From Kiritimatiellia bacterium (GTDB lineage: Bacteria; Verrucomicrobiota; Kiritimatiellia; RFP12; DVOR01), in the NCBI GenBank assembly GCA_031552845.1, contig JAVBMC010000028.1:72394-136393 (forward strand): a DNA stretch of 64,000 nucleotides. Direction: 5' to 3'. This document shows positions 1 to 9,420 of this stretch, piece after piece (within the stretch, counting starts at the first letter, position 1; each line of letters opens with the position of its first letter). The notes under the pieces were generated by a model. It was not told where the DNA came from. It saw nothing but the letters and a program-made list of their open reading frames with translations, and did not search any database. Made by a program: the position numbers and the translations under genes.

Positions 1-2047
1 GGATTTGATCGTACTCAGTCGGGGCTAGCTGGCAAATAAAATCATTTTCAATGTGATATGTTTCATTAATGTACTTACGTATTACCGAATTTTTATGCGT
101 CGAATCAATGAGCCGATAGATTTGAAGCTTCTCGTACCCGTTTTTTGCATCTCGGTAGAGGGTCAAAAGAAATTTATTGTCAGCAAGACATGAAACGGTA
201 TTTTGATAATCAAATGAAGGAAGAACAAGCATCTCCCTTATCGTCTCCATACCTTTGTTTGTGTCCTTCGCGCTCAAAGGCATATATGAGCCATCCAGGT
301 TTCTTCTTCGATGATCCTCTGGCGTTTGACGTCCTTTTAAAAGATTTGAGAGCAGTTGATAAGTATCACCTAAATCATCGATGGTTTCAAAGTAACGCCT
401 CAGATAAATTAGTTTGATGATTAAAGGACATGTTGATCTAATAACGCTACTACATATTTGGCCAAAAGTGAGCATTTTGTCGGCTGTGATCAGGCGTTCA
501 GTAAGATTGCCGTCAGAAGCCTTTAAAAAATGAGCGGTTGAAATCGACGAAAACATTCTTTTCAGCACCTTCACCGTATCGATCACGGGCTCGATGTCGT
601 GAGTCAGTAACAGAACAGTCTTACCCTTGAACGAGTGAAAATCTTGAAAGAGCATGTTCAAGATCGCAAATTTCTTATCCTTGTCGAAGGAAGAAATAGG
701 GTCATCCAAAACGATCAAGTCTGGTTTTTTCGACAAACACTCAAACATGAAAAGAACCAAAGCGAAAGCATTACGTTCGCCGAAACTCAAATGCTGACTG
801 CCCCCCGAGACAGCTTCTGTGTATTCCACATGTCGAAGACGCAGGCGATGCCCATCGCTCTCATCTGTAATCAGCACCTCATATTTGTAACCGGCATTCG
901 CAAGGAAGCCATTGATCGTGCTGAGGTTTTCCTCAATGAGTTTCTTTGTAGCTTTGCGTTGTTTATTGATCTCTCCTTGCAATCTACCAGCATCGACCGA
1001 AAGCTCATCGAGTTTGCCGTTTAAGACTGCAATGATGCGCTGTGTTTCAGTTGAGTTTAGGTGCTCAAAAAAAGTTAAATCTAGACGAAGTGTCGGCAGT
1101 TTTTCAGCAACTTTCTCAGTTTCTTTAAAACTCTGGCCAGACAAGGACTTTAGTTGCTCAAGTTTGTCTGTAAGGGTGCCGATCTGAGTTTTTATGGAGA
1201 TCAAGAAATCAGTGTGCTCTTTTTGAAGCCCATCTTTCTGCTTGATAATCTGGTTAATTTTTGCCCGCGCTTCATCTGAAAAGTATTTTCCCAACTTTTC
1301 AATCACTCCAATAATCTTTGTGAGATGTTCAATAGTCTTCTTGTCGTATTCTTCGGAAAACCTTTTAATGGTCTCTCGTTTTGCGGTGGCAGGCAAGGTG
1401 CAAAACGGGCAAGCGTGGCTGATCTCAAGAAAGGGTTGTCCCTGCTGTTGCCAACCAATCCAAGATATATTTTTTTCGTGCTTCAGAAATGGTTCGTATT
1501 CCTCCAGCCCTTTGGGAATATGTTCATATTTATTACCTCTTTCCAACGCCTTATAACCGGGGCTAGCTTTTGATATCTCACTTTTTGCAGTCAATTTAAA
1601 ACATCCGGAAAGTTCACGAAGGTCCGTGAGAAAAAGATCAAGATCTGGATCCTCGGAAAAGGCCGACCTAGTTTTTTTGACGATTCCCTCTATTGCCTGA
1701 AGATGTTGCTCATAGTCAGGGGTTTTGATGAATATCTCAAAACTGTTTGCTACGAGTTCGTCCGGTTTAAATACAAATTGTTCCAAGTAATTTTCGTTGA
1801 AAATCCTGATACTGCCAATGCCCGCAAGACCATCAACCTCGGGCACAAGATTCTGCGGATTATCTTGTCTGAGCTTGAATGGAAGCAAATCAACCAGCGT
1901 AGCTTCATTTGATATCTTACGTTCTATGGCGGTGGCAATCGTACTCTTGCCGGTTCCATTGGCACCGTATTTGATATTCAGTTTTCCCTGTTCAATCTGG
2001 ATTTCTCCTTGATTGATATTATTGCAGTTCTTGAATATGATTTTCAT
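1..2047 (-). CDS. AAA-family ATPase, RloC/PrrC-like (restriction-linked anticodon-nuclease-type ATPase); partial, C-terminus beyond window start
   Basis: Hand translation of the minus strand from ATG (revcomp of cat 2045-2047) gives MKIIFKNCNNINQGEIQIEQGKLNIKYGANGTGKSTIATA... with a Walker A GANGTGKST. RBS aaggaa sits 7 nt upstream. No stop to position 1. Contains a coiled-coil-like region with an HACPFC (CxxC zinc-hook-like) motif. Lies directly downstream of hsdS in the same operon. Low GC (~40%). Confidence 0.7.
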   Translation of the reverse strand, partial: MKIIFKNCNNINQGEIQIEQGKLNIKYGANGTGKSTIATAIERKISNEATLVDLLPFKLRQDNPQNLVPEVDGLAGIGSIRIFNENYLEQFVFKPDELVANSFEIFIKTPDYEQHLQAIEGIVKKTRSAFSEDPDLDLFLTDLRELSGCFKLTAKSEISKASPGYKALERGNKYEHIPKGLEEYEPFLKHEKNISWIGWQQQGQPFLEISHACPFCTLPATAKRETIKRFSEEYDKKTIEHLTKIIGVIEKLGKYFSDEARAKINQIIKQKDGLQKEHTDFLISIKTQIGTLTDKLEQLKSLSGQSFKETEKVAEKLPTLRLDLTFFEHLNSTETQRIIAVLNGKLDELSVDAGRLQGEINKQRKATKKLIEENLSTINGFLANAGYKYEVLITDESDGHRLRLRHVEYTEAVSGGSQHLSFGERNAFALVLFMFECLSKKPDLIVLDDPISSFDKDKKFAILNMLFQDFHSFKGKTVLLLTHDIEPVIDTVKVLKRMFSSISTAHFLKASDGNLTERLITADKMLTFGQICSSVIRSTCPLIIKLIYLRRYFETIDDLGDTYQLLSNLLKGRQTPEDHRRRNLDGSYMPLSAKDTNKGMETIREMLVLPSFDYQNTVSCLADNKFLLTLYRDAKNGYEKLQIYRLIDSTHKNSVIRKYINETYHIENDFICQLAPTEYDQI

Positions 2048-2065
2048 TGAGGTGATTCCTTGAGA

Positions 2066-3241
2066 TCAAATCAATCTGGTTCTTCCGGTTAAAAGCTCCT
2101 GCATCATGGCTTGCTTGAGGGCGCGGGTCTTCTCCCGTCGCTGCTCCAACGCCGCCAGCTCCGCATCCATGTCCGTCAACACTTCGGCGATGGCGGTTTG
2201 TTCGGGGAAAGAAGGAAGTTTAAGCATAAGTGTCTTTAAGTCTTTCCCATAGAGATGATGGATTGTGATTCCTTGGGTAAGTTCGGCAATTTCATGTCTC
2301 CTTGCTTGCGTCAAGTAGTTCGCTAGAAAGACAGGGGCGTAGTCATTATCTTTTCGCCGGATGATGATAATGTCCCCGCCAAGCGCCACGTTGTCCATGA
2401 GGAGCACCGATGCAGTAGCCAAATCAATTCCGGTGGTCGTCGTAGAACCGGGCATTAGTACATCACCTTGAATTGAGGGACAACCGTCACTTGAATTTGT
2501 TAGACTGAAAACGTCCGAAATTACCCGGCCATAGGTAGTGAATAACTCGCCATAAAGAATGCATTGGTGAGTTCCTGAAGTCGTTGTCAGTGATTTCGAA
2601 AGTGCGTTTCCTTTCAAAACATCTGCGATGCTCCCCAATCGTATTTCTCGCCACTCGCCGGAAAAGCCGGAGAGACGGGTTTGGCTGGTGAGGAGTTGCT
2701 GCATGGTGGCCTGTTTGAGGTCGCGTTTTTTGGCGATTAGCCGATCCAACCCACCCAGCAGCTCATCCACATCGCTTAACGCCTCCGCGATAGCGTGTTG
2801 TTCGTTTTTGGATCGTGGCACTCCGATCCTAAGTTGAAGAATCTTGGAGACTGATAATCCCGGCTGGGCCGATGCTTCGGATAAGCGATTAAGGCGCATT
2901 TCTCCGAGGGCATAGGTTAAGAACTTGATGTTCGTGTCTTCGAGAGGGGTCACAACCACAGCGTGCTCTGATGCGAAGAACATCCCGGTTACACCAATTA
3001 CGTTACCGCATAGTGCGCCTTGCCGACCAATGATCGCAAATGATCCGGAGTGGGTATATTGGGACGTAAAGCCCCGCAGTCCATTCCCACCGTAGCAAGG
3101 ATATTGCGAGTGCTCGGTAATTCTTGACGCCGTGATGGTCTCGCCACTCTTCATCGAGGATATTGCTGAAAGTGTCTTTACCTCCCACTCCTCCGGAATG
3201 ACTCCGACCTCGGTCTGCTTGTATCCGGTCTTCACTTCCAT
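2066..3241 (-). CDS. hsdS: Type I restriction-modification specificity subunit HsdS
   Basis: 391-aa ORF with two target-recognition domains and conserved HsdS coiled-coil repeats (LPSFPEQTAIAEVLTDMDAELAALEQRREKTRALKQAMMQELLTGRTRL, and the central ...LIAKKRDLKQATMQQLLT...). Overlaps hsdM by 10 nt. Confidence 0.9.
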   Translation of the reverse strand: MEVKTGYKQTEVGVIPEEWEVKTLSAISSMKSGETITASRITEHSQYPCYGGNGLRGFTSQYTHSGSFAIIGRQGALCGNVIGVTGMFFASEHAVVVTPLEDTNIKFLTYALGEMRLNRLSEASAQPGLSVSKILQLRIGVPRSKNEQHAIAEALSDVDELLGGLDRLIAKKRDLKQATMQQLLTSQTRLSGFSGEWREIRLGSIADVLKGNALSKSLTTTSGTHQCILYGELFTTYGRVISDVFSLTNSSDGCPSIQGDVLMPGSTTTTGIDLATASVLLMDNVALGGDIIIIRRKDNDYAPVFLANYLTQARRHEIAELTQGITIHHLYGKDLKTLMLKLPSFPEQTAIAEVLTDMDAELAALEQRREKTRALKQAMMQELLTGRTRLI

Positions 3242-5748
3242 ATCATCCCCATCTGTTTGAGATGCTTTTTTACTTTAGCGGCGAGCACGGCCACTTCGTC
3301 GGTAAGCTGTGGCAACGGGGTGGCGTAGCGTTCCGCAAGTTGGCAGATGCGGCTGGTGAGAGTTCGTGAGACACGATCCAACTCGTCCTGTACAGCGGTT
3401 GTTATGATGGCCATCCATTTGTCGTCCACGACGAGGGTCTTGATGTCGTCCTCGGTGAGCGTGGGGTATTTGACGTAGAGTTTGTTTTCGAGATCTGTCT
3501 GTGCGGCTTTGAGCCGTGCCTTGGTGCCGGTCTGTCTGTTGAGCAGAGCGGCGTAGTCTTTGAGGGCTTGGCGTTCCTCGGCGTAATCTGGATCACTCTC
3601 GATTTCCTTGAGACGGGTTTGCACGGATTTTGATGTGATTTTCTGCTTGTCACCTTGGCCTTCGATGGCTTCCGCGAGTAGCCCTTTCTCACCGCTGTGC
3701 TCCTCGCCGCTGTGCTCCTCACGCATTTCGTCGAGCTGTTGCTCAATGCCGGCTAGTCTAGCTTTGATGGTTGCAATGGCATGGCGTTCAGCGGTGAAGT
3801 AACGGGCAATCAGCAGGTCAGCGGGGAGGAGATCGGACTTGAAGCGGCGCGTACCTTTCTTGACGTCTTCCTCCTCGGGCCAGACGAGTTTGCCTTCCTT
3901 GTTTTTGATCTGCGTGATTTCGCGGAGCAATGCCCCCGCTTTCCATCCGGCGTCGGAAATCAGGTAGCAATCATCCTTCATGGTCGAGTCCCAGTGATCC
4001 ATGAGGTGTTGATAGACATCGTAAGCGTCGAGCAGCGGCACGGTCTTGAAGGTGGCGAGCAAGTCCTCGGAGATGCTTTCAATGAGCGGCTTGGGATGGC
4101 CATTCTGGGCGAAATCTTTGAGCTGAGGAACGGTGGTCTTTTGCCATTTTACGAAGAGCTTTTTGGTCTTGGCTGTGAATGCAATGAATTCGGCGTGAGA
4201 AAAGATTGTCGGATTTACCTTGTCAATGGAACGTTTGAGCTCAAAGTAGCCGGAGCGACTGGACTTGAACAAGGCAGCACGCAGATTAGGCATAATTTTC
4301 CAGTAATTGCCGAGTGCATCAAGGTCGTGTTTCGGGATGCCGCCGCGCAGGTGGCCGTCGATGTCCTGTAGGTCCTCCGGCTCGGTGCTGTCGATGTAGC
4401 GCGGGAGGTTGAGGTTGTAGTCATTTTTTGGGTCGGCGATTTCGGCGACGGAGACCATACGGGCGTAGCGCGGGTCGCTTTCATCCTGCCGGGCGAAGGT
4501 GTCCACGATCCTGTGGATGTCCTGCTCTCGGAGTCTGTTTTTCGGACCGTCCTTTCTGAAGCCTTTGGAGGCATCCATCATGAAGATGCCCTTGCGGGCG
4601 GTGGCGTTTTCCTTGTCAAGCACAATGATGCAGGCAGGAATACCCGTGCCGTAAAAAAGGTTGGCAGGCAGGCCGATGATGGCCTTAAGGTAGCCGGAGC
4701 GGACGAGCTGCTGGCGAATGACAGCCTCGGCATTACTGCGGAAAAGGACGCCGTGCGGAAGAATGCACGCGCCTTTGCCCGTGCTCTTCAGGGAGCGGAT
4801 AATGTGGAGAAGGTAGGCGTAGTCGCCTTGCTTTTTCGGTGGCAAGCCCCAAGGGAAGCGCTGGAATTTGTCATCGCTGCCGTTCTCGCCTAGAGTGAGG
4901 CCGGTGGACCAAGCTTTGTCGGAGAACGGAGGATTGGCAACGACGTAGTCGTAGGTGCGGAGTTTTTGTTCGTTGTCTTTGTCTCTGAACTTGGGATCGA
5001 AGAGGGTGTTGCCCGAAAGGACATTGGCTGTCGGAAAGTCATGCAGGATCATGTTCATACGGGCGAGACCGGCAGTAGTCACATCCTTCTCCTGCCCTTC
5101 GAGTGTAATGTGTTTGCCCGCTTCGGCAGCGACTTTCAATAGTAACGATCCCGATCCGCAGGTGGGATCGTAGGCAGTGGTCCCAGCCTTGGAATTGGCT
5201 GGAGAGATACCGATGACTTTCGCCATGATCCGGCTGACTTCGGATGGAGTGTAGAATTGCCCCTTACTTCTTCCGCTTTCGCTGGCAAAGTGCCGCATGA
5301 GATACTCGTAAGCGTCGCCGAGGATGTCATCGTTTTCTGCGCGGTTCTTTGAAAAATCGAGTGCGGGGGTTTCAAAGATGGCGATGAGGTTGCCCAACTT
5401 TTCGACCTTTTGCGCGCCATCACCGAGCTTGTTGGAGTCGTTAAAGTCTGGAAAATAGCTGCGGGCGAGACGGGAGTTGGTGTCAATGAGCGGTTGGATG
5501 ACCCGCGTGTTGATGAGGTTGCCGATGTCGCTGTTGCCTTTAAGCGCGACCATGTCTTTGAAGCTCGCGCCCTTCGGAATGACGACCGGTGGCTTGAATC
5601 CATCGTAGTCCCCGTATTTGTCGGAGATGTATTTGATGAAAAGCATGAACAGGACGTAGTCCTTGTATTGGCTGGCATCCATTCCTCCGCGCAGCTCATC
5701 GCAGGAAGCCCATAGAGACGAATAAAGGTCAGATTTCTTGATGGCCAT
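3232..5748 (-). CDS. hsdM: Type I R-M N6-adenine DNA methyltransferase HsdM (long form, ~838 aa)
   Basis: N-terminal HsdM_N-like region, SAM-binding motif I, catalytic NPPF motif (VVANPPFSDKAW), and a long C-terminal coiled-coil extension. Confidence 0.9.
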   Translation of the reverse strand: MAIKKSDLYSSLWASCDELRGGMDASQYKDYVLFMLFIKYISDKYGDYDGFKPPVVIPKGASFKDMVALKGNSDIGNLINTRVIQPLIDTNSRLARSYFPDFNDSNKLGDGAQKVEKLGNLIAIFETPALDFSKNRAENDDILGDAYEYLMRHFASESGRSKGQFYTPSEVSRIMAKVIGISPANSKAGTTAYDPTCGSGSLLLKVAAEAGKHITLEGQEKDVTTAGLARMNMILHDFPTANVLSGNTLFDPKFRDKDNEQKLRTYDYVVANPPFSDKAWSTGLTLGENGSDDKFQRFPWGLPPKKQGDYAYLLHIIRSLKSTGKGACILPHGVLFRSNAEAVIRQQLVRSGYLKAIIGLPANLFYGTGIPACIIVLDKENATARKGIFMMDASKGFRKDGPKNRLREQDIHRIVDTFARQDESDPRYARMVSVAEIADPKNDYNLNLPRYIDSTEPEDLQDIDGHLRGGIPKHDLDALGNYWKIMPNLRAALFKSSRSGYFELKRSIDKVNPTIFSHAEFIAFTAKTKKLFVKWQKTTVPQLKDFAQNGHPKPLIESISEDLLATFKTVPLLDAYDVYQHLMDHWDSTMKDDCYLISDAGWKAGALLREITQIKNKEGKLVWPEEEDVKKGTRRFKSDLLPADLLIARYFTAERHAIATIKARLAGIEQQLDEMREEHSGEEHSGEKGLLAEAIEGQGDKQKITSKSVQTRLKEIESDPDYAEERQALKDYAALLNRQTGTKARLKAAQTDLENKLYVKYPTLTEDDIKTLVVDDKWMAIITTAVQDELDRVSRTLTSRICQLAERYATPLPQLTDEVAVLAAKVKKHLKQMGMIWK

Positions 5749-5847
5749 AAATTAGCTTAAAAGGTTGAAATGAAAAAATACAGTTAAATTTCTAGCAACA
5801 GTTAATACCCATATTTGTCCGGAGAGAGCAAACGTCTTGTGCTAACC

Positions 5848-6996
5848 CTAACCGTTTTCCCCAGTGAAATACTCGGCGAGGGTGTGGAGAAACTCTGGTT
5901 TGAGAGAAACGGCTAGGTTTTCTTTCTGGATAACATCCAATTTCTTGGTCAGTTTTGAGAAGCTGATGTATCCGCAGACTTTGCCGAGTGGTTTTTCGCG
6001 GAGCGAGAAGGTGGGGCGGCGGATTTCTTGCGCGACTTTGTTGCGGCGTTCATCCGGTGCCACAAGGAAAAGGTTGATGGATAGATTGGGTTGTAGTGCC
6101 AGCAGGTCACTCATGCGCAGCAGTCCGGAGTAAACCGAGGTGGTGCATTCAATCTCAAACGCAGCCAAGATAGAGTTTCCTTTGAGCCAGAGTACATCAA
6201 TCAGTTCAATTGTCCGATTCGTGGCCTCATTAAATTGTGTGGGGAGCTCTTTCACCATGCGGTCAAATGCACCTAGTTCTTTACTTTTCCATTGGCGTGA
6301 GCGGTCGTTCCGCGCAACCCACAAATCAAATCCCATCTCTTCGCCTAGCTTGAGCAAGCGGTACTGAATCTCGGTGTGCCGTGTAGTGGCAGCGTCTTCG
6401 CCATCTATTACGGTGGATTGTTTTTTAGTCTTTACTGTCTCTTCTGTTTCCGGCACAGTGACCTGTACCTTAATAGTTGCTTTTCCCTTGCGTCGTTCCG
6501 CCATGTAGGTTGGCTTATAGGCTAGCTGTTTGGGGTCAACGGCACGCCAAGTCGGATTTGTATCAGCTTTCTTGAGCAAGGAGAAAATCAAGTCACCATC
6601 GGCCGTATTTTGAACACGCTTAGGACCGCCACGGATCATACACTTATACTTATTCCGATCTTCCGGTCCCGTGTAAAATGCTACTCGTCCTTCTAATTCT
6701 TCCATGGGAACACCGTGTTCGGGCGAAAGCAAAACAAGAGGCTTTACTACAAATCGTACCGGAAAGACATCATCCTGCCAAATTCTTGATTGATCTTTTG
6801 AGCGTTCAACGACCTTTAATGCTCCAACAAGACGCTTCATGCCTCCAGTCAGATAGCACAAGAAGATATCCCCGGATCTTACTTGCTCTATCGCAGCCTC
6901 ATTGGTTTTGCTTTGACGAAATCCTGAAATCCGTGCTCCGGATTTTTGAAACTCCGCCCATGTTGTGGCGGTAAACATATTAAACCAATAGGTCAT
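5848..6996 (-). CDS. EVE/PUA-like domain protein fused to an uncharacterised C-terminal domain (possible PD-(D/E)xK-like nuclease)
   Basis: 382-aa ORF. The N-terminus MTYWFNMFTATTWAEFQKSG...IFLCYLTGG...LVGALKVV resembles EVE/PUA-like modified-base readers. The C-terminal ~150 aa (IDVLWLKGNSILAAFEIECTTS...) has no obvious family. Driven by a TGgTATAAT promoter and a GAGGAG RBS. Confidence 0.5.
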   Translation of the reverse strand: MTYWFNMFTATTWAEFQKSGARISGFRQSKTNEAAIEQVRSGDIFLCYLTGGMKRLVGALKVVERSKDQSRIWQDDVFPVRFVVKPLVLLSPEHGVPMEELEGRVAFYTGPEDRNKYKCMIRGGPKRVQNTADGDLIFSLLKKADTNPTWRAVDPKQLAYKPTYMAERRKGKATIKVQVTVPETEETVKTKKQSTVIDGEDAATTRHTEIQYRLLKLGEEMGFDLWVARNDRSRQWKSKELGAFDRMVKELPTQFNEATNRTIELIDVLWLKGNSILAAFEIECTTSVYSGLLRMSDLLALQPNLSINLFLVAPDERRNKVAQEIRRPTFSLREKPLGKVCGYISFSKLTKKLDVIQKENLAVSLKPEFLHTLAEYFTGENG

Positions 6997-7035
6997 TGTT
7001 CAGGCTCCTCAAAAGCAAACGTCGATCTAAACGCT

Positions 7036-7128
7036 CAACCATGTGCCGATTATACCACGTCATCCCCTTAAAAGCAATCCTCAAGAAATCTTTCTGCGGT
7101 GGCCTTTTGTGGACGGTGTTTCTTGATG
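7036..7128 (-). promoter_or_regulatory. Conserved ~93-bp promoter cassette, copy 1 (-35 TTGCTT, 17 bp, extended -10 TGgTATAAT), driving the EVE-domain gene
   Basis: The minus strand reads ...aagatttcttgaggATTGCTTttaaggggatgacgTGgTATAATcggcacatggttg... ending ~45 nt before the ATG at 6996. It is ~80% identical to the 8696-8788 copy. Confidence 0.6.
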
Positions 7129-7619
7129 CGACTAGCGCGATGTCCATACGCCGTCCGCGGCTGGTATTTTCAATCGGTTCATTTTTCTCGCTCTTCTTCA
7201 GCGTCTCCGTATCTGCCGGGAGTTTCTTCGTTATTTTCAGGGGTCGTATATCAGGTGATATCGTGCTCATAAATCAGGTGATGTCGTACTCGTGTATCAA
7301 GTGATATGGTACCCCGAAAGAAGAGGAGTTTGCACACCTGGCAAATAACTGCTTCAGATACCTCTCCTATCCTCCGCGCCTCCGCGTGAGTTTTTTAGGT
7401 GTCGAGTAGTTTTAGGTATTGCTGCTGGCGTTCTTTGTTTTAATGCAGTATCGGAATGATATCAAACAAAAAAAGTCTTTTAATTCCGTATTGTTCCGAA
7501 TGGATTGCCGCACATATGTGTGTTTGAGCGAGTGTTTCTTGATGGTGGATGCGGGGCTGGTGGTGCGAGTTGCGTGTTTTGAGGTACATTTTGCGGGGGA
7601 GCGAATGGAGTATGTGGGA

Positions 7620-8618
7620 TTACTCACTATTCTTGCCGCCAGTGTCTTTTTGCATTAATGCCCGAATGGCGCGGTCGAAGTCACTTTCAAGCTGCTTCAT
7701 TTCGCGTGCGCGGTAGAGCTCGAATTCTTTTTCAGCCTTTTCGATTGCCTGTTTGTGAGATATGCGTCCGGCATCTTGCAAAATCTTTCTTTTGTGGCTG
7801 AGTATTTGATTGTCGAGTGCTTCAACCCAGTCTTGCATGGTCATTGGGGCTTGTTCCAGCGCCTGAAACTCCGCAAAGTCCAAGAATTGCGATACTAAAA
7901 GATTGAGGCGCTGTAATTCAAGCTCGGAAAGGTAATTTTTCGCTATCCTCACATCGTCTTTTGTGATGTAACCGCCCTTGAAATTGGTCATGCCGACAAG
8001 CGGCTTTTCGTTGTCGACCCGCTCGTGAATCACTTCGGCGGCGGTATGCTCGTGTACTGCAAAATGCAGTTTGTTTTGCACCGTTGCAAAGAATGTTTTG
8101 GTCATATCAGAGCGCGGATCGTAATCCGTCGCCGTAGCGTAAATGTCGGTAACTTGCTGGTAAAAGTTGCGTTCGCTGCTGCGAATGTCGCGGATGCGTT
8201 GTAGGAGTTCCCGGAAATAACGGCCGCCACCGTTTTTCAAGCGATCGTCGTCAAGCGTAAACCCTTTGCGGATATACTCGTTCAGTCGCTTCGTAGCCCA
8301 TTGACGGAACTGTGTGCCGCGTAAAGATTTAACTCGGTAACCGACCGAGATTACCACATCAAGGTTATAATAGTCAACTTGATACGTTTTGCTGTCGGCA
8401 GCAGTTGTTGCAAACTTTGCAACAACTGAATCCCTCATCAATTCGCCCTCTTCAAATACGTTTTTGATATGGCGGGAAATGGTAGATTTGTCACGTTCAA
8501 ATAACTTTGCCATTCGATCGAGAGACAACCACGCAGTTTCTGCATCAAAGTGCGTATCAATTGATATTTTCCCATCTTCTGTCGTAAAAATGATCATTTG
8601 ATTTTCTTTGCCGGTCAT
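7620..8618 (-). CDS. RhuM-family virulence/defense-associated protein
   Basis: The 332-aa product begins ...IIFTTEDGKISIDTHFDAETAWLSLDRMAKLFERDKSTISRHIKNVFEEGEL, the characteristic RhuM N-terminal HTH-like region. RBS AGGAGAA. Confidence 0.8.
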   Translation of the reverse strand: MTGKENQMIIFTTEDGKISIDTHFDAETAWLSLDRMAKLFERDKSTISRHIKNVFEEGELMRDSVVAKFATTAADSKTYQVDYYNLDVVISVGYRVKSLRGTQFRQWATKRLNEYIRKGFTLDDDRLKNGGGRYFRELLQRIRDIRSSERNFYQQVTDIYATATDYDPRSDMTKTFFATVQNKLHFAVHEHTAAEVIHERVDNEKPLVGMTNFKGGYITKDDVRIAKNYLSELELQRLNLLVSQFLDFAEFQALEQAPMTMQDWVEALDNQILSHKRKILQDAGRISHKQAIEKAEKEFELYRAREMKQLESDFDRAIRALMQKDTGGKNSE

Positions 8619-8695
8619 ATCACTGTTCTCCTAATTTCCGTAGCAATGAGTTCGCCCCTGCGGCGGAGTACATGCTTGTGTTGTGTACGTACAAG

Positions 8696-8788
8696 CAACC
8701 ATGTGCGGATTATATCACGTAGTATCGTCCAAAGCAATGCTCAAGAAATCTTTTTGAGCCGGCCTTTTGGGGCGGCGTTTCCTGATGG
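8696..8788 (-). promoter_or_regulatory. Conserved ~93-bp promoter cassette, copy 2 (-35 TTGCTT, 17 bp, extended -10 TGaTATAAT), driving the RhuM gene
   Basis: The minus strand reads ...aagatttcttgagcATTGCTTtggacgatactacgTGaTATAATccgcacatggttg..., ~85 nt upstream of the RhuM ATG at 8618. Confidence 0.6.
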
Positions 8789-9039
8789 AGGATGAGCGGG
8801 CTCTATATTTGATGGCGGAAAGTAGGCTGTGACTGAAGATAGGTTTTATAATTCGGCAGATGCGGAGTGTTTGTGAAATAGAAGGTCGGTTTGGTCGCGA
8901 TGTTCATGCATTATATTCACCTTACGTTATTCTTCGCGACCGAGTCGAGCACATTAAAAGCTATAACCACGCGATTCATCCCCTATTATCTATTCTTTAT
9001 CACTTATTACTTCGCCTTTCATGTTGGAGTCCCCCGACG

Positions 9040-9420
9040 TAGCTCGGATATTTGTGTGAGCCGGGCGGGTATTTTGTCTGAGCCCAGTGTGAAAAATGTG
9101 TGAGCTGAGTCAATATTTTGTCTGAGCCGTATGGATAATTTGTGCGAGCCGGGCAAGAATTTTGTACCACGTGCCTCGCACAAATTCAACATGCGCGTTT
9201 TTCGAGCGTGTTATATCGTCCGTACTCGCGGAGCACGAATCATAATTTTGCGGGATACGTATCAGCGTACCACGCATCACGTATCATCCATTTGCGCATC
9301 ACGTGCTATCGTACTGCGGGATACGTGATATAAGTTTGTGTGTCACGTGACATCGTACCGGATGATGTGTGTCATCGTACTGCGGGACACGTGTCATCCG
9401 TTTGCAGTACACGTATCCTT
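9040..9420. repeat. AT-rich degenerate tandem repeats (TTTGTNNGAGCCGGGC units; cluster of CACGTG-centred palindromes)
   Basis: 9040-9170 holds 4-5 units ...tttgtgtgagccgggc / ttttgtctgagcc / tttgtgcgagccgggc. 9230-9420 holds repeated ...atcgtactgcgggaYacgtg..., cacgtgctat, gtcacgtgacat and gacacgtgtcat. GC content is far below the flanks. Confidence 0.6.

Follow-up and report, generated by a model that had tools for sequence, protein, structure and literature searches.

What does a large ATP-binding cassette (ABC) ATPase do when its gene stands directly behind the specificity gene of a type I restriction-modification (R-M) operon, and does it need that operon to be kept in check? The question is raised by one end of a 64,000-nucleotide (nt) stretch of Kiritimatiellia bacterium DNA (assembly GCA_031552845.1, contig JAVBMC010000028.1, positions 72,394 to 136,393; here called the window), in which such a gene starts with an ATG at 2047-2045 on the minus strand and runs off the edge at position 1. 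An earlier note, made from the letters of the window, had likened the gene order to the prr/rlo architecture and had seen in the ATPase a latent nuclease, of the RloC rather than the PrrC type, silenced by its R-M partner. The reading we favor, and to which we give a probability of about one half, is that the ATPase is an autonomous abortive-infection effector of the RloC type. The heads would dimerize, driven by ATP, under the influence of a CPxC hook bridged by zinc and of a cue from infection, which might be DNA ends or failed restriction, and would thereby unleash a HEPN-like C-terminal RNase; this in turn would cut tRNA or other RNA, and translation would stop.

Family and distribution

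The length of the ATPase, taken from a 100% identical database protein (P0001), is 702 amino acids (aa), of which 682 are encoded in the window and the last 20 past position 1, in line with the long frame (>680 aa, open at the edge) that had been described. The profile search proposed in the earlier note, against Pfam AAA_13 (PF13166), returned 65.7 bits for a cut-off of 36, with the match confined to profile positions 443-571 of 713. A far more extensive match was to PDLC04889, a sub-model of the PADLOC candidate PDC-S06, on which residues 1-682 of the protein align with model positions 1-675 of 693 (E 2.7e-268). Other PDC-S06 sub-models cover the ATPase part only, and the C-terminal domain is thus specific to the PDLC04889 sub-family. 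PDC-S06 (AAA_13 ATPases) and PDC-S05 (RhuM) are computational candidates in PADLOC, put forward through “guilt by embedding” in R-M or bacteriophage exclusion (BREX) loci.

By these matches the ATPase is a member of a large, uncharacterized branch of AAA_13 ABC ATPases. Homologues fall into >3,700 sequence clusters, all about 700 aa long among the matches listed, and the species-representative genomes gave >450 confirmed loci. The branch is spread over Proteobacteria, Bacteroidota, Verrucomicrobiota, Planctomycetota, Nitrospirota, Firmicutes, Spirochaetes, and bacteria of the candidate phyla radiation (CPR). Homologues of about 46% identity are also carried by 913 plasmids, mostly conjugative and from E. 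coli, Salmonella, and Klebsiella, and some of these copies stand alone; one homologue from an E. coli plasmid is WP_000350635.1.

Architecture of the ATPase

The AlphaFold model of the ATPase (predicted local distance difference test score [pLDDT] 84.9) divides into an ABC head interrupted by an insert, a beta-rich ABC C-lobe, and a C-terminal domain (aa 500-702) that is mostly helical. Walker A, GANGTGKST, lies at 1940-1966 on the minus strand (aa 28-36), with K34 present in 76 of 78 homologues; the ABC signature HLSFGERNAF, the Walker B/D-loop LIVLDDPISSFD, and the H-loop LLTHDI follow at 593-793 on the same strand (aa 419-485). This head is closest to those of the DNA-binding ABC ATPases SMC, RecF, and Rad50, and a search of PDB sequences with the full-length protein gave generic ABC matches only. 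The insert that splits the head is helical in the model and about 280 aa long, spanning roughly aa 107-388, and it carries the motif HACPFC (1400-1417, minus strand, aa 211-216). C213, P214, and C216 are conserved in all 78 divergent homologues, which come from many phyla. In the model, CPFC (aa 213-216) belongs to a loop, aa 210-223, flanked by helices 193-209 and 224-233. CPFC has no further conserved Cys or His close by in the sequence, and a zinc hook between subunits is therefore a plausible candidate role for it. The earlier note had placed HACPFC within a Rad50-like coiled coil; the motif and a helical setting are there, but the insert is modeled as compact, and CPFC does not stand at the tip of a long two-helix coiled coil of the Rad50 type.

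The C-terminal domain, encoded at 2-550 on the minus strand (aa 500-682 of 500-702 within the window), has no Pfam model, and modeled separately it reaches a pLDDT of 89.3 and a predicted template-modeling score (pTM) of 0.86. Its conserved residues fall into two motifs. The first, Y-L-R550-R551-x-x-E554, is YLRRYFE here (386-406, minus strand, aa 548-554), with E554 in 96% of homologues. The second, K658-x2-N661-x3-H665-x-E667-N668, is RKYINETYHIEN here (44-79, minus strand, aa 657-668), is retained almost perfectly, and is the candidate catalytic motif: K658 is found in 77 of 78 homologues, N668 is invariant or nearly so, and H665 and E667, like R550 and R551 of the first motif, are found in all 78. 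As a set, the polar residues R550, R551, E554, K658, H665, E667, and N668 look more like an active site than a binding surface, and the likeness of the two motifs to PrrC residues, described below, is suggestive of a HEPN-like RNase but no proof of one. The domain is accordingly a candidate rather than an established HEPN-like RNase, its predicted activity resting on weak fold matches together with the motif.

Comparison with PrrC and RloC

Two families of ABC-coupled anticodon nucleases invite comparison, and the nuclease domains of both PrrC and RloC have been classed as HEPN (PMC3710099). For PrrC, the anticodon nuclease for tRNA-Lys that the prr locus encodes, our reference was an EcoPrrC-type protein of 396 aa, recovered from viral contigs by means of the published LARP peptide; its numbering agrees with that of the literature (H23, K46, R320, N321, E324, R349, N352, H356). 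L082 (IMG/VR contig IMGVR_UViG_3300029516_000004), of 95 kb and classed as viral, carries an hsdS-prrC pair encoding an EcoPrrC-type anticodon nuclease.

The ATPase and PrrC have several features in common: both belong to AAA_13, the Walker B/D-loop is nearly identical (DDP[VI]SS[LF]D), and the gene stands in the slot of prrC, from hsdS to an hsdR that here is presumed. R320/N321/E324 and R349/N352/H356 of PrrC are essential by mutagenesis (PMC3025547), and LLR320-N321-LYE324 and R349-IIN352-FTSH356 are echoed in the ATPase by LRRxxE and KxxNxxxH. PrrC differs in having only 396 residues and neither the insert nor a CxxC. Moreover, the AAA_13 match in PrrC spans profile positions 486-687 and continues through the nuclease domain, whereas in the ATPase it is limited to the ATPase motifs. 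The PADLOC PrrC model PDLC02360, which gives 6e-148 with the EcoPrrC-type protein, has no match to the ATPase at E<=0.01. With hhalign, the ATPase family profile was aligned against three PrrC profiles (a single sequence, 121 sequences, and a diverse set of 17, the last with nine divergent plasmid homologues), and the only alignments obtained were of Walker A or of the segment from Walker B to the H-loop, the best at P 8.6e-4 over 69 columns (PrrC YVFIDDPVSSLD). Homology to the PrrC anticodon-nuclease domain (H295, H315, R320, E324, R349, N352, H356) was not found in the ATPase, and the resemblance there is an echo at the level of motifs.

RloC, the anticodon nuclease of Geobacillus kaustophilus and Campylobacter that excises the wobble nucleotide, is a protein of 658-897 aa that is only occasionally linked to R-M (PMC2610378, PMC3458546). 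The ATPase falls within its size class. On the AlphaFold model the domain plan of the ATPase resembles that of RloC: an ABC head is split by a helical insert in which a CxxC is invariant, and a C-terminal helical domain has a conserved R-x3-E and a later His; the linkage of the ATPase family to R-M loci is likewise occasional and not obligatory. However, RloC is defined by a C-terminal Arg-x3-Glu-x36-52-His, often with Ser before the His (PMC2610378), and in the ATPase R550-x3-E554 is followed by H665 only after 110 residues, with Tyr here, and Tyr or Phe among the homologues, preceding the His in place of Ser. No conserved R-x3-E lies 36-52 residues ahead of H665. In addition, the loop that bears the CxxC is part of a compact helical insert and does not cap long coiled-coil arms. 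None of the PADLOC matches of the ATPase or of PrrC is to a model named RloC.

By the tests run, then, the ATPase belongs to neither the PrrC nor the RloC family, and its separation from RloC is by the published motif and not by direct alignment. The assignment in the earlier note to the RloC type over the PrrC type thus agrees with the overall domain plan, with its invariant CxxC in a compact helical insert, but fails on the spacing of the nuclease motif. Of the anticodon-nuclease motif that it had recommended looking for, the ATPase shows the RRxxE and KxxNxxxH echo, though neither by PrrC homology nor at the RloC spacing. A more specific proposal is that the PDLC04889 branch, beside PrrC and RloC, is a third family, of independent origin, in which an anticodon or RNA nuclease is coupled to an ABC ATPase, with a divergent HEPN-like fold bearing Lys-x2-Asn-x3-His-x-Glu-Asn and an Arg-Arg-x2-Glu helix, and gated by a short zinc hook; this we offer tentatively, as a possibility somewhat short of even odds.

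Weighing an RNase against a non-catalytic domain

Several results weigh against a HEPN-like RNase effector. Searched alone against Pfam and PADLOC, the C-terminal domain finds its own sub-model only, and no sequence method connects it with PrrC, with RloC, or with a HEPN model of any kind. In hhalign it did not align with PrrC under any of the three profiles (P 0.11-0.47). Foldseek against the PDB was empty for the domain, and its profile returned nothing above noise from PDB sequences. The Arg of canonical HEPN motifs is replaced by Lys (K658): the invariant pair is K658-x6-H665 in place of R-x4-6-H, and R657, which would give a spacing of x7, is found in only 30 of the 78 homologues. The N-x3-H portion, for its part, agrees with N352-x3-H356 of PrrC. 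Finally, the searchable literature holds no experiment on a PDC-S06 member.

These results leave some room for a protein that is a sensor or scaffold and no nuclease, in which the C-terminal domain would bind nucleic acid or a partner while the ATPase clamps or bridges DNA in the ATP-dependent manner of SMC proteins or modulates a neighboring restriction enzyme. The kinship of the head with SMC, RecF, and Rad50 and the want of a significant nuclease match in the C-terminal domain both agree with such a role, and non-catalytic HEPN domains do exist (PMC3710099). Nevertheless, we consider it rather unlikely: the invariant C-terminal set has the look of an active site, and a single gene with no conserved partner calls for an effector that is built in.

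Genomic context of the family

Where the homologues are found bears on whether an R-M partner silences the ATPase. Among the closest of them, three (72%, 69%, and 66% identity) stand in operons of the form hsdM(803-965 aa)-DUF1016/YhcG-hsdS-ATPase-(RhuM or small open reading frames [ORFs])-hsdR-YgjP. Two others, of 65-67% identity, come after a type III mod-res pair. Of the 5 closest homologues, 3 thus occupy the slot between hsdS and hsdR, as does, with hsdR presumed, the ATPase of the window. Across species-level loci the picture is broader, with type I genes within 10 kb of the ATPase in about 20 of 78; some of the non-type-I loci lie in BREX systems or beside sbcCD. Where no type I genes were detected (57 loci), the immediate neighbors match 118 different Pfam families, and no neighbor recurs. 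By comparison, all the PrrC homologues that we inspected have hsdS on one side and hsdR or hsdM on the other.

The family therefore behaves like a self-contained single-gene system, one that is often but not necessarily found inside R-M operons. With only about a quarter of the species-level loci R-M-linked, the ATPase is probably autonomous and not silenced by an R-M partner, and the pattern of contexts is closer to the self-regulation of RloC than to the silencing of PrrC by its R-M partner. The alternative is wiring of the PrrC type, in which the ATPase would be a latent anticodon nuclease held inactive in the HsdMSR complex of its own operon and set free once a phage anti-restriction protein had put the complex out of action. 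Its attractions are those of position: the gene begins 18 nt past hsdS, where prrC would be, hsdR lies downstream in the three R-M-linked close homologues, and PrrC itself is R-M-linked in every homologue inspected. From the same perspective, however, the type III systems ahead of two of the five closest homologues, the mostly enterobacterial plasmid copies, and the low share of type I loci are difficult to accommodate. Since the ATPase is found in so many settings, dependence on one HsdMSR partner for silencing is unlikely, and the claim of the earlier note that the R-M system keeps the nuclease silent is improbable as a general rule. We regard PrrC-type wiring as unlikely. As for an ordinary ABC-transporter ATP-binding subunit, suggested by JGI product names for homologues (EcfA2 or Mn/Zn transport ATPase) and by weak generic ABC matches in NCBIfam and PDB sequence searches, we reject that annotation as highly improbable, with every NCBIfam match far under its cut-off, the ABC domain split by the long helical insert, and the inspected loci being R-M, BREX, or variable contexts and not transporter operons.

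Individual loci show how varied the surroundings are. In L083, L085, and L089, which are loci of close homologues, the gene between hsdM and hsdS is a DUF1016/YhcG gene (PD-(D/E)xK-like) and the gene after hsdR encodes a YgjP-like metallopeptidase. L085 is further distinguished by an upstream Fic gene and by a RhuM gene that separates the ATPase from hsdR. In the window, neither a DUF1016/YhcG nor a YgjP-like gene lies between hsdM and hsdS. In the type III-linked loci L086 and L087 the homologues belong to a larger conserved block that comprises an SNF2 helicase, DUF4391, a PIN toxin pair, an N6_N4 methylase, ResIII/RE_endonuc, and a small ORF, and then the ATPase. In 4-5 genomes, among them the GTDB loci L002 and L006, the ATPase gene is directly upstream of an sbcD-sbcC-like pair, that is, a Metallophos/SbcD_C gene and then an AAA_23/SbcC_Walker_B gene. 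On the E. coli IncF plasmid pEC195-93k (L100; NZ_CP085190.1), a homologue of 712 aa retains all motifs, and its neighbors are an hsdS-hsdR interrupted by IS1, a gene for an S-4TM pore-forming effector, vapBC, and a DUF3800 gene, a plasmid-borne defense cluster that would be easy to handle experimentally.

The island and its regulatory region

Positions 1-8618 are occupied by five genes, all on the minus strand, and Pfam and PADLOC identities bear out the order hsdM, hsdS, and ATPase up to the edge that the earlier note had given. The type I methyltransferase gene hsdM (5748-3232, 838 aa) matches N6_Mtase (E 7e-94) and HsdM_N, scores above the cut-off of TIGR00497, and matches the PADLOC MTase_I model PDLC03027 from end to end. 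Its product is unusually long, with about 370 aa beyond the methylase domain, and the loci that hold the closest homologues of the ATPase encode the same long form (803-965 aa). The specificity gene hsdS (3241-2066, 391 aa; Methylase_S E 1e-30, PADLOC Specificity_I E 1e-78) overlaps hsdM by 10 nt, and 18 nt separate its stop codon from the start of the ATPase gene. No hsdR was found in the 64-kb window, so that the type I set here consists of hsdM and hsdS; as three of the closest homologues have hsdR downstream, the gene very probably lies just past position 1. The prr/rlo-like order is supported by the position of the ATPase and by its relatives, though hsdR itself is missing from the window.

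Farther upstream are the two companion genes. The RhuM-family gene (8618-7620, 332 aa) is unambiguous, with 356.5 bits against a gathering threshold of 33.7 for PF13310 (E 9e-107) and E 6e-149 for PDC-S05. Between it and hsdM, a gene at 6996-5848 encodes a protein of 382 aa with an NmeDI_C nuclease domain at its C-terminus (PF27126, present in all homologues listed; PADLOC REase_II E 2.5e-16) and an EVE/PUA-like N-terminal domain. The N-terminus has weak profile matches to the UPF0310 chains 2p5d (E 0.0013) and 1wmm (E 0.034) and to NCBIfam PRK00809 (9e-5, under the cut-off of that model), all of which we take to be EVE-type entries. The Pfam scan found no match to the EVE model, and the assignment of this domain to EVE is weakly supported; of the EVE/PUA fusion proposed earlier, the C-terminal part is a nuclease domain, and the EVE part has E values of 1e-3 to 9e-5. 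Modification-dependent restriction enzymes have as their standard plan a reader of the PUA superfamily (EVE, SRA, YTH, ASCH) joined to a nuclease (PMC12191111). The 382-aa protein resembles these in its EVE-like N-terminus and NmeDI_C C-terminus and in having no cognate methylase of its own, and it is probably a modification-dependent (type IV-like) restriction enzyme, a prediction from domain content.

Base composition sets the ATPase apart. Its GC content is 41.3%, compared with 50.9% for hsdS, 54.4% for hsdM, 47.9% for the 382-aa ORF, 46.2% for RhuM, and 55.4% for the rest of the window, which makes it the compositional outlier of the locus. The estimate of about 40% in the earlier note was therefore close, whereas the host value of about 60% was too high; the separate acquisition that it had proposed for the ATPase fits, as the low GC is in line with a separately acquired cassette. 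In sum, the type I pair and RhuM had been correctly recognized, and the locus is a defense island of four modules in one orientation: RhuM, the EVE-like/NmeDI-type nuclease, the operon for type I R-M, and a cassette with the ATPase, which very probably lies between hsdS and the presumed hsdR past the window edge.

Both companion genes are preceded by a copy of the same promoter, as had been noted: a repeat of 77 nt, with 81% identity between its copies at 7036-7112 and 8696-8772, retains TTGCTT-N17-TGnTATAAT in each on the minus strand. The first copy, upstream of the EVE-fusion gene, has its -35 element (TTGCTT) at 7077-7072 and its TGn-extended -10 element (TATAAT) at 7054-7049; in the second, upstream of RhuM, they are at 8737-8732 and 8714-8709. 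Upstream of the EVE-fusion promoter, 7244-7312 holds three tandem units of 23 nt (TCGTATATCAGGTGATATCGTGC) with a palindromic core, ATATCA-nn-TGATAT. Degenerate copies of the unit occur at 8708-8730, inside the second promoter repeat, and farther upstream at 9292-9314 and 9336-9358. These palindromic units resemble operator sites to which a dimeric regulator might bind. A tandem array with a 44-nt period (9046-9165, 2.8 copies, 70% matches) and repeats of 22-25 nt (9292-9393) occupy a stretch poor in ORFs that separates the island from flanking genes of higher GC, and may represent an island boundary or a regulatory region.

Discussion

As an assemblage, the locus is a textbook defense island and not surprising. 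ABC-HEPN fusions beside R-M and RhuM genes have already been reported by comparative genomics (Anantharaman et al. 2013, PMC3710099), and the combination described there, “R-M + PrrC-like ABC-HEPN + RhuM” as a multi-pronged defense locus, corresponds to the neighborhood seen here; likewise, PDC-S06 and PDC-S05 are catalogued by PADLOC. The gain lies mainly in a concrete and testable prediction for a very common candidate family, namely that its members carry a HEPN-like RNase, with K658 and H665 at its center, gated by the ABC ATPase and a CPxC hook. Since plasmids mostly of E. coli, Salmonella, and Klebsiella carry homologues, the family could easily be tested directly in E. coli. If the C-terminal domain is indeed an RNase, the branch would represent a third lineage of ABC-gated nucleases that disable translation, and a domain that has neither a Pfam model nor a structural relative would acquire a function.

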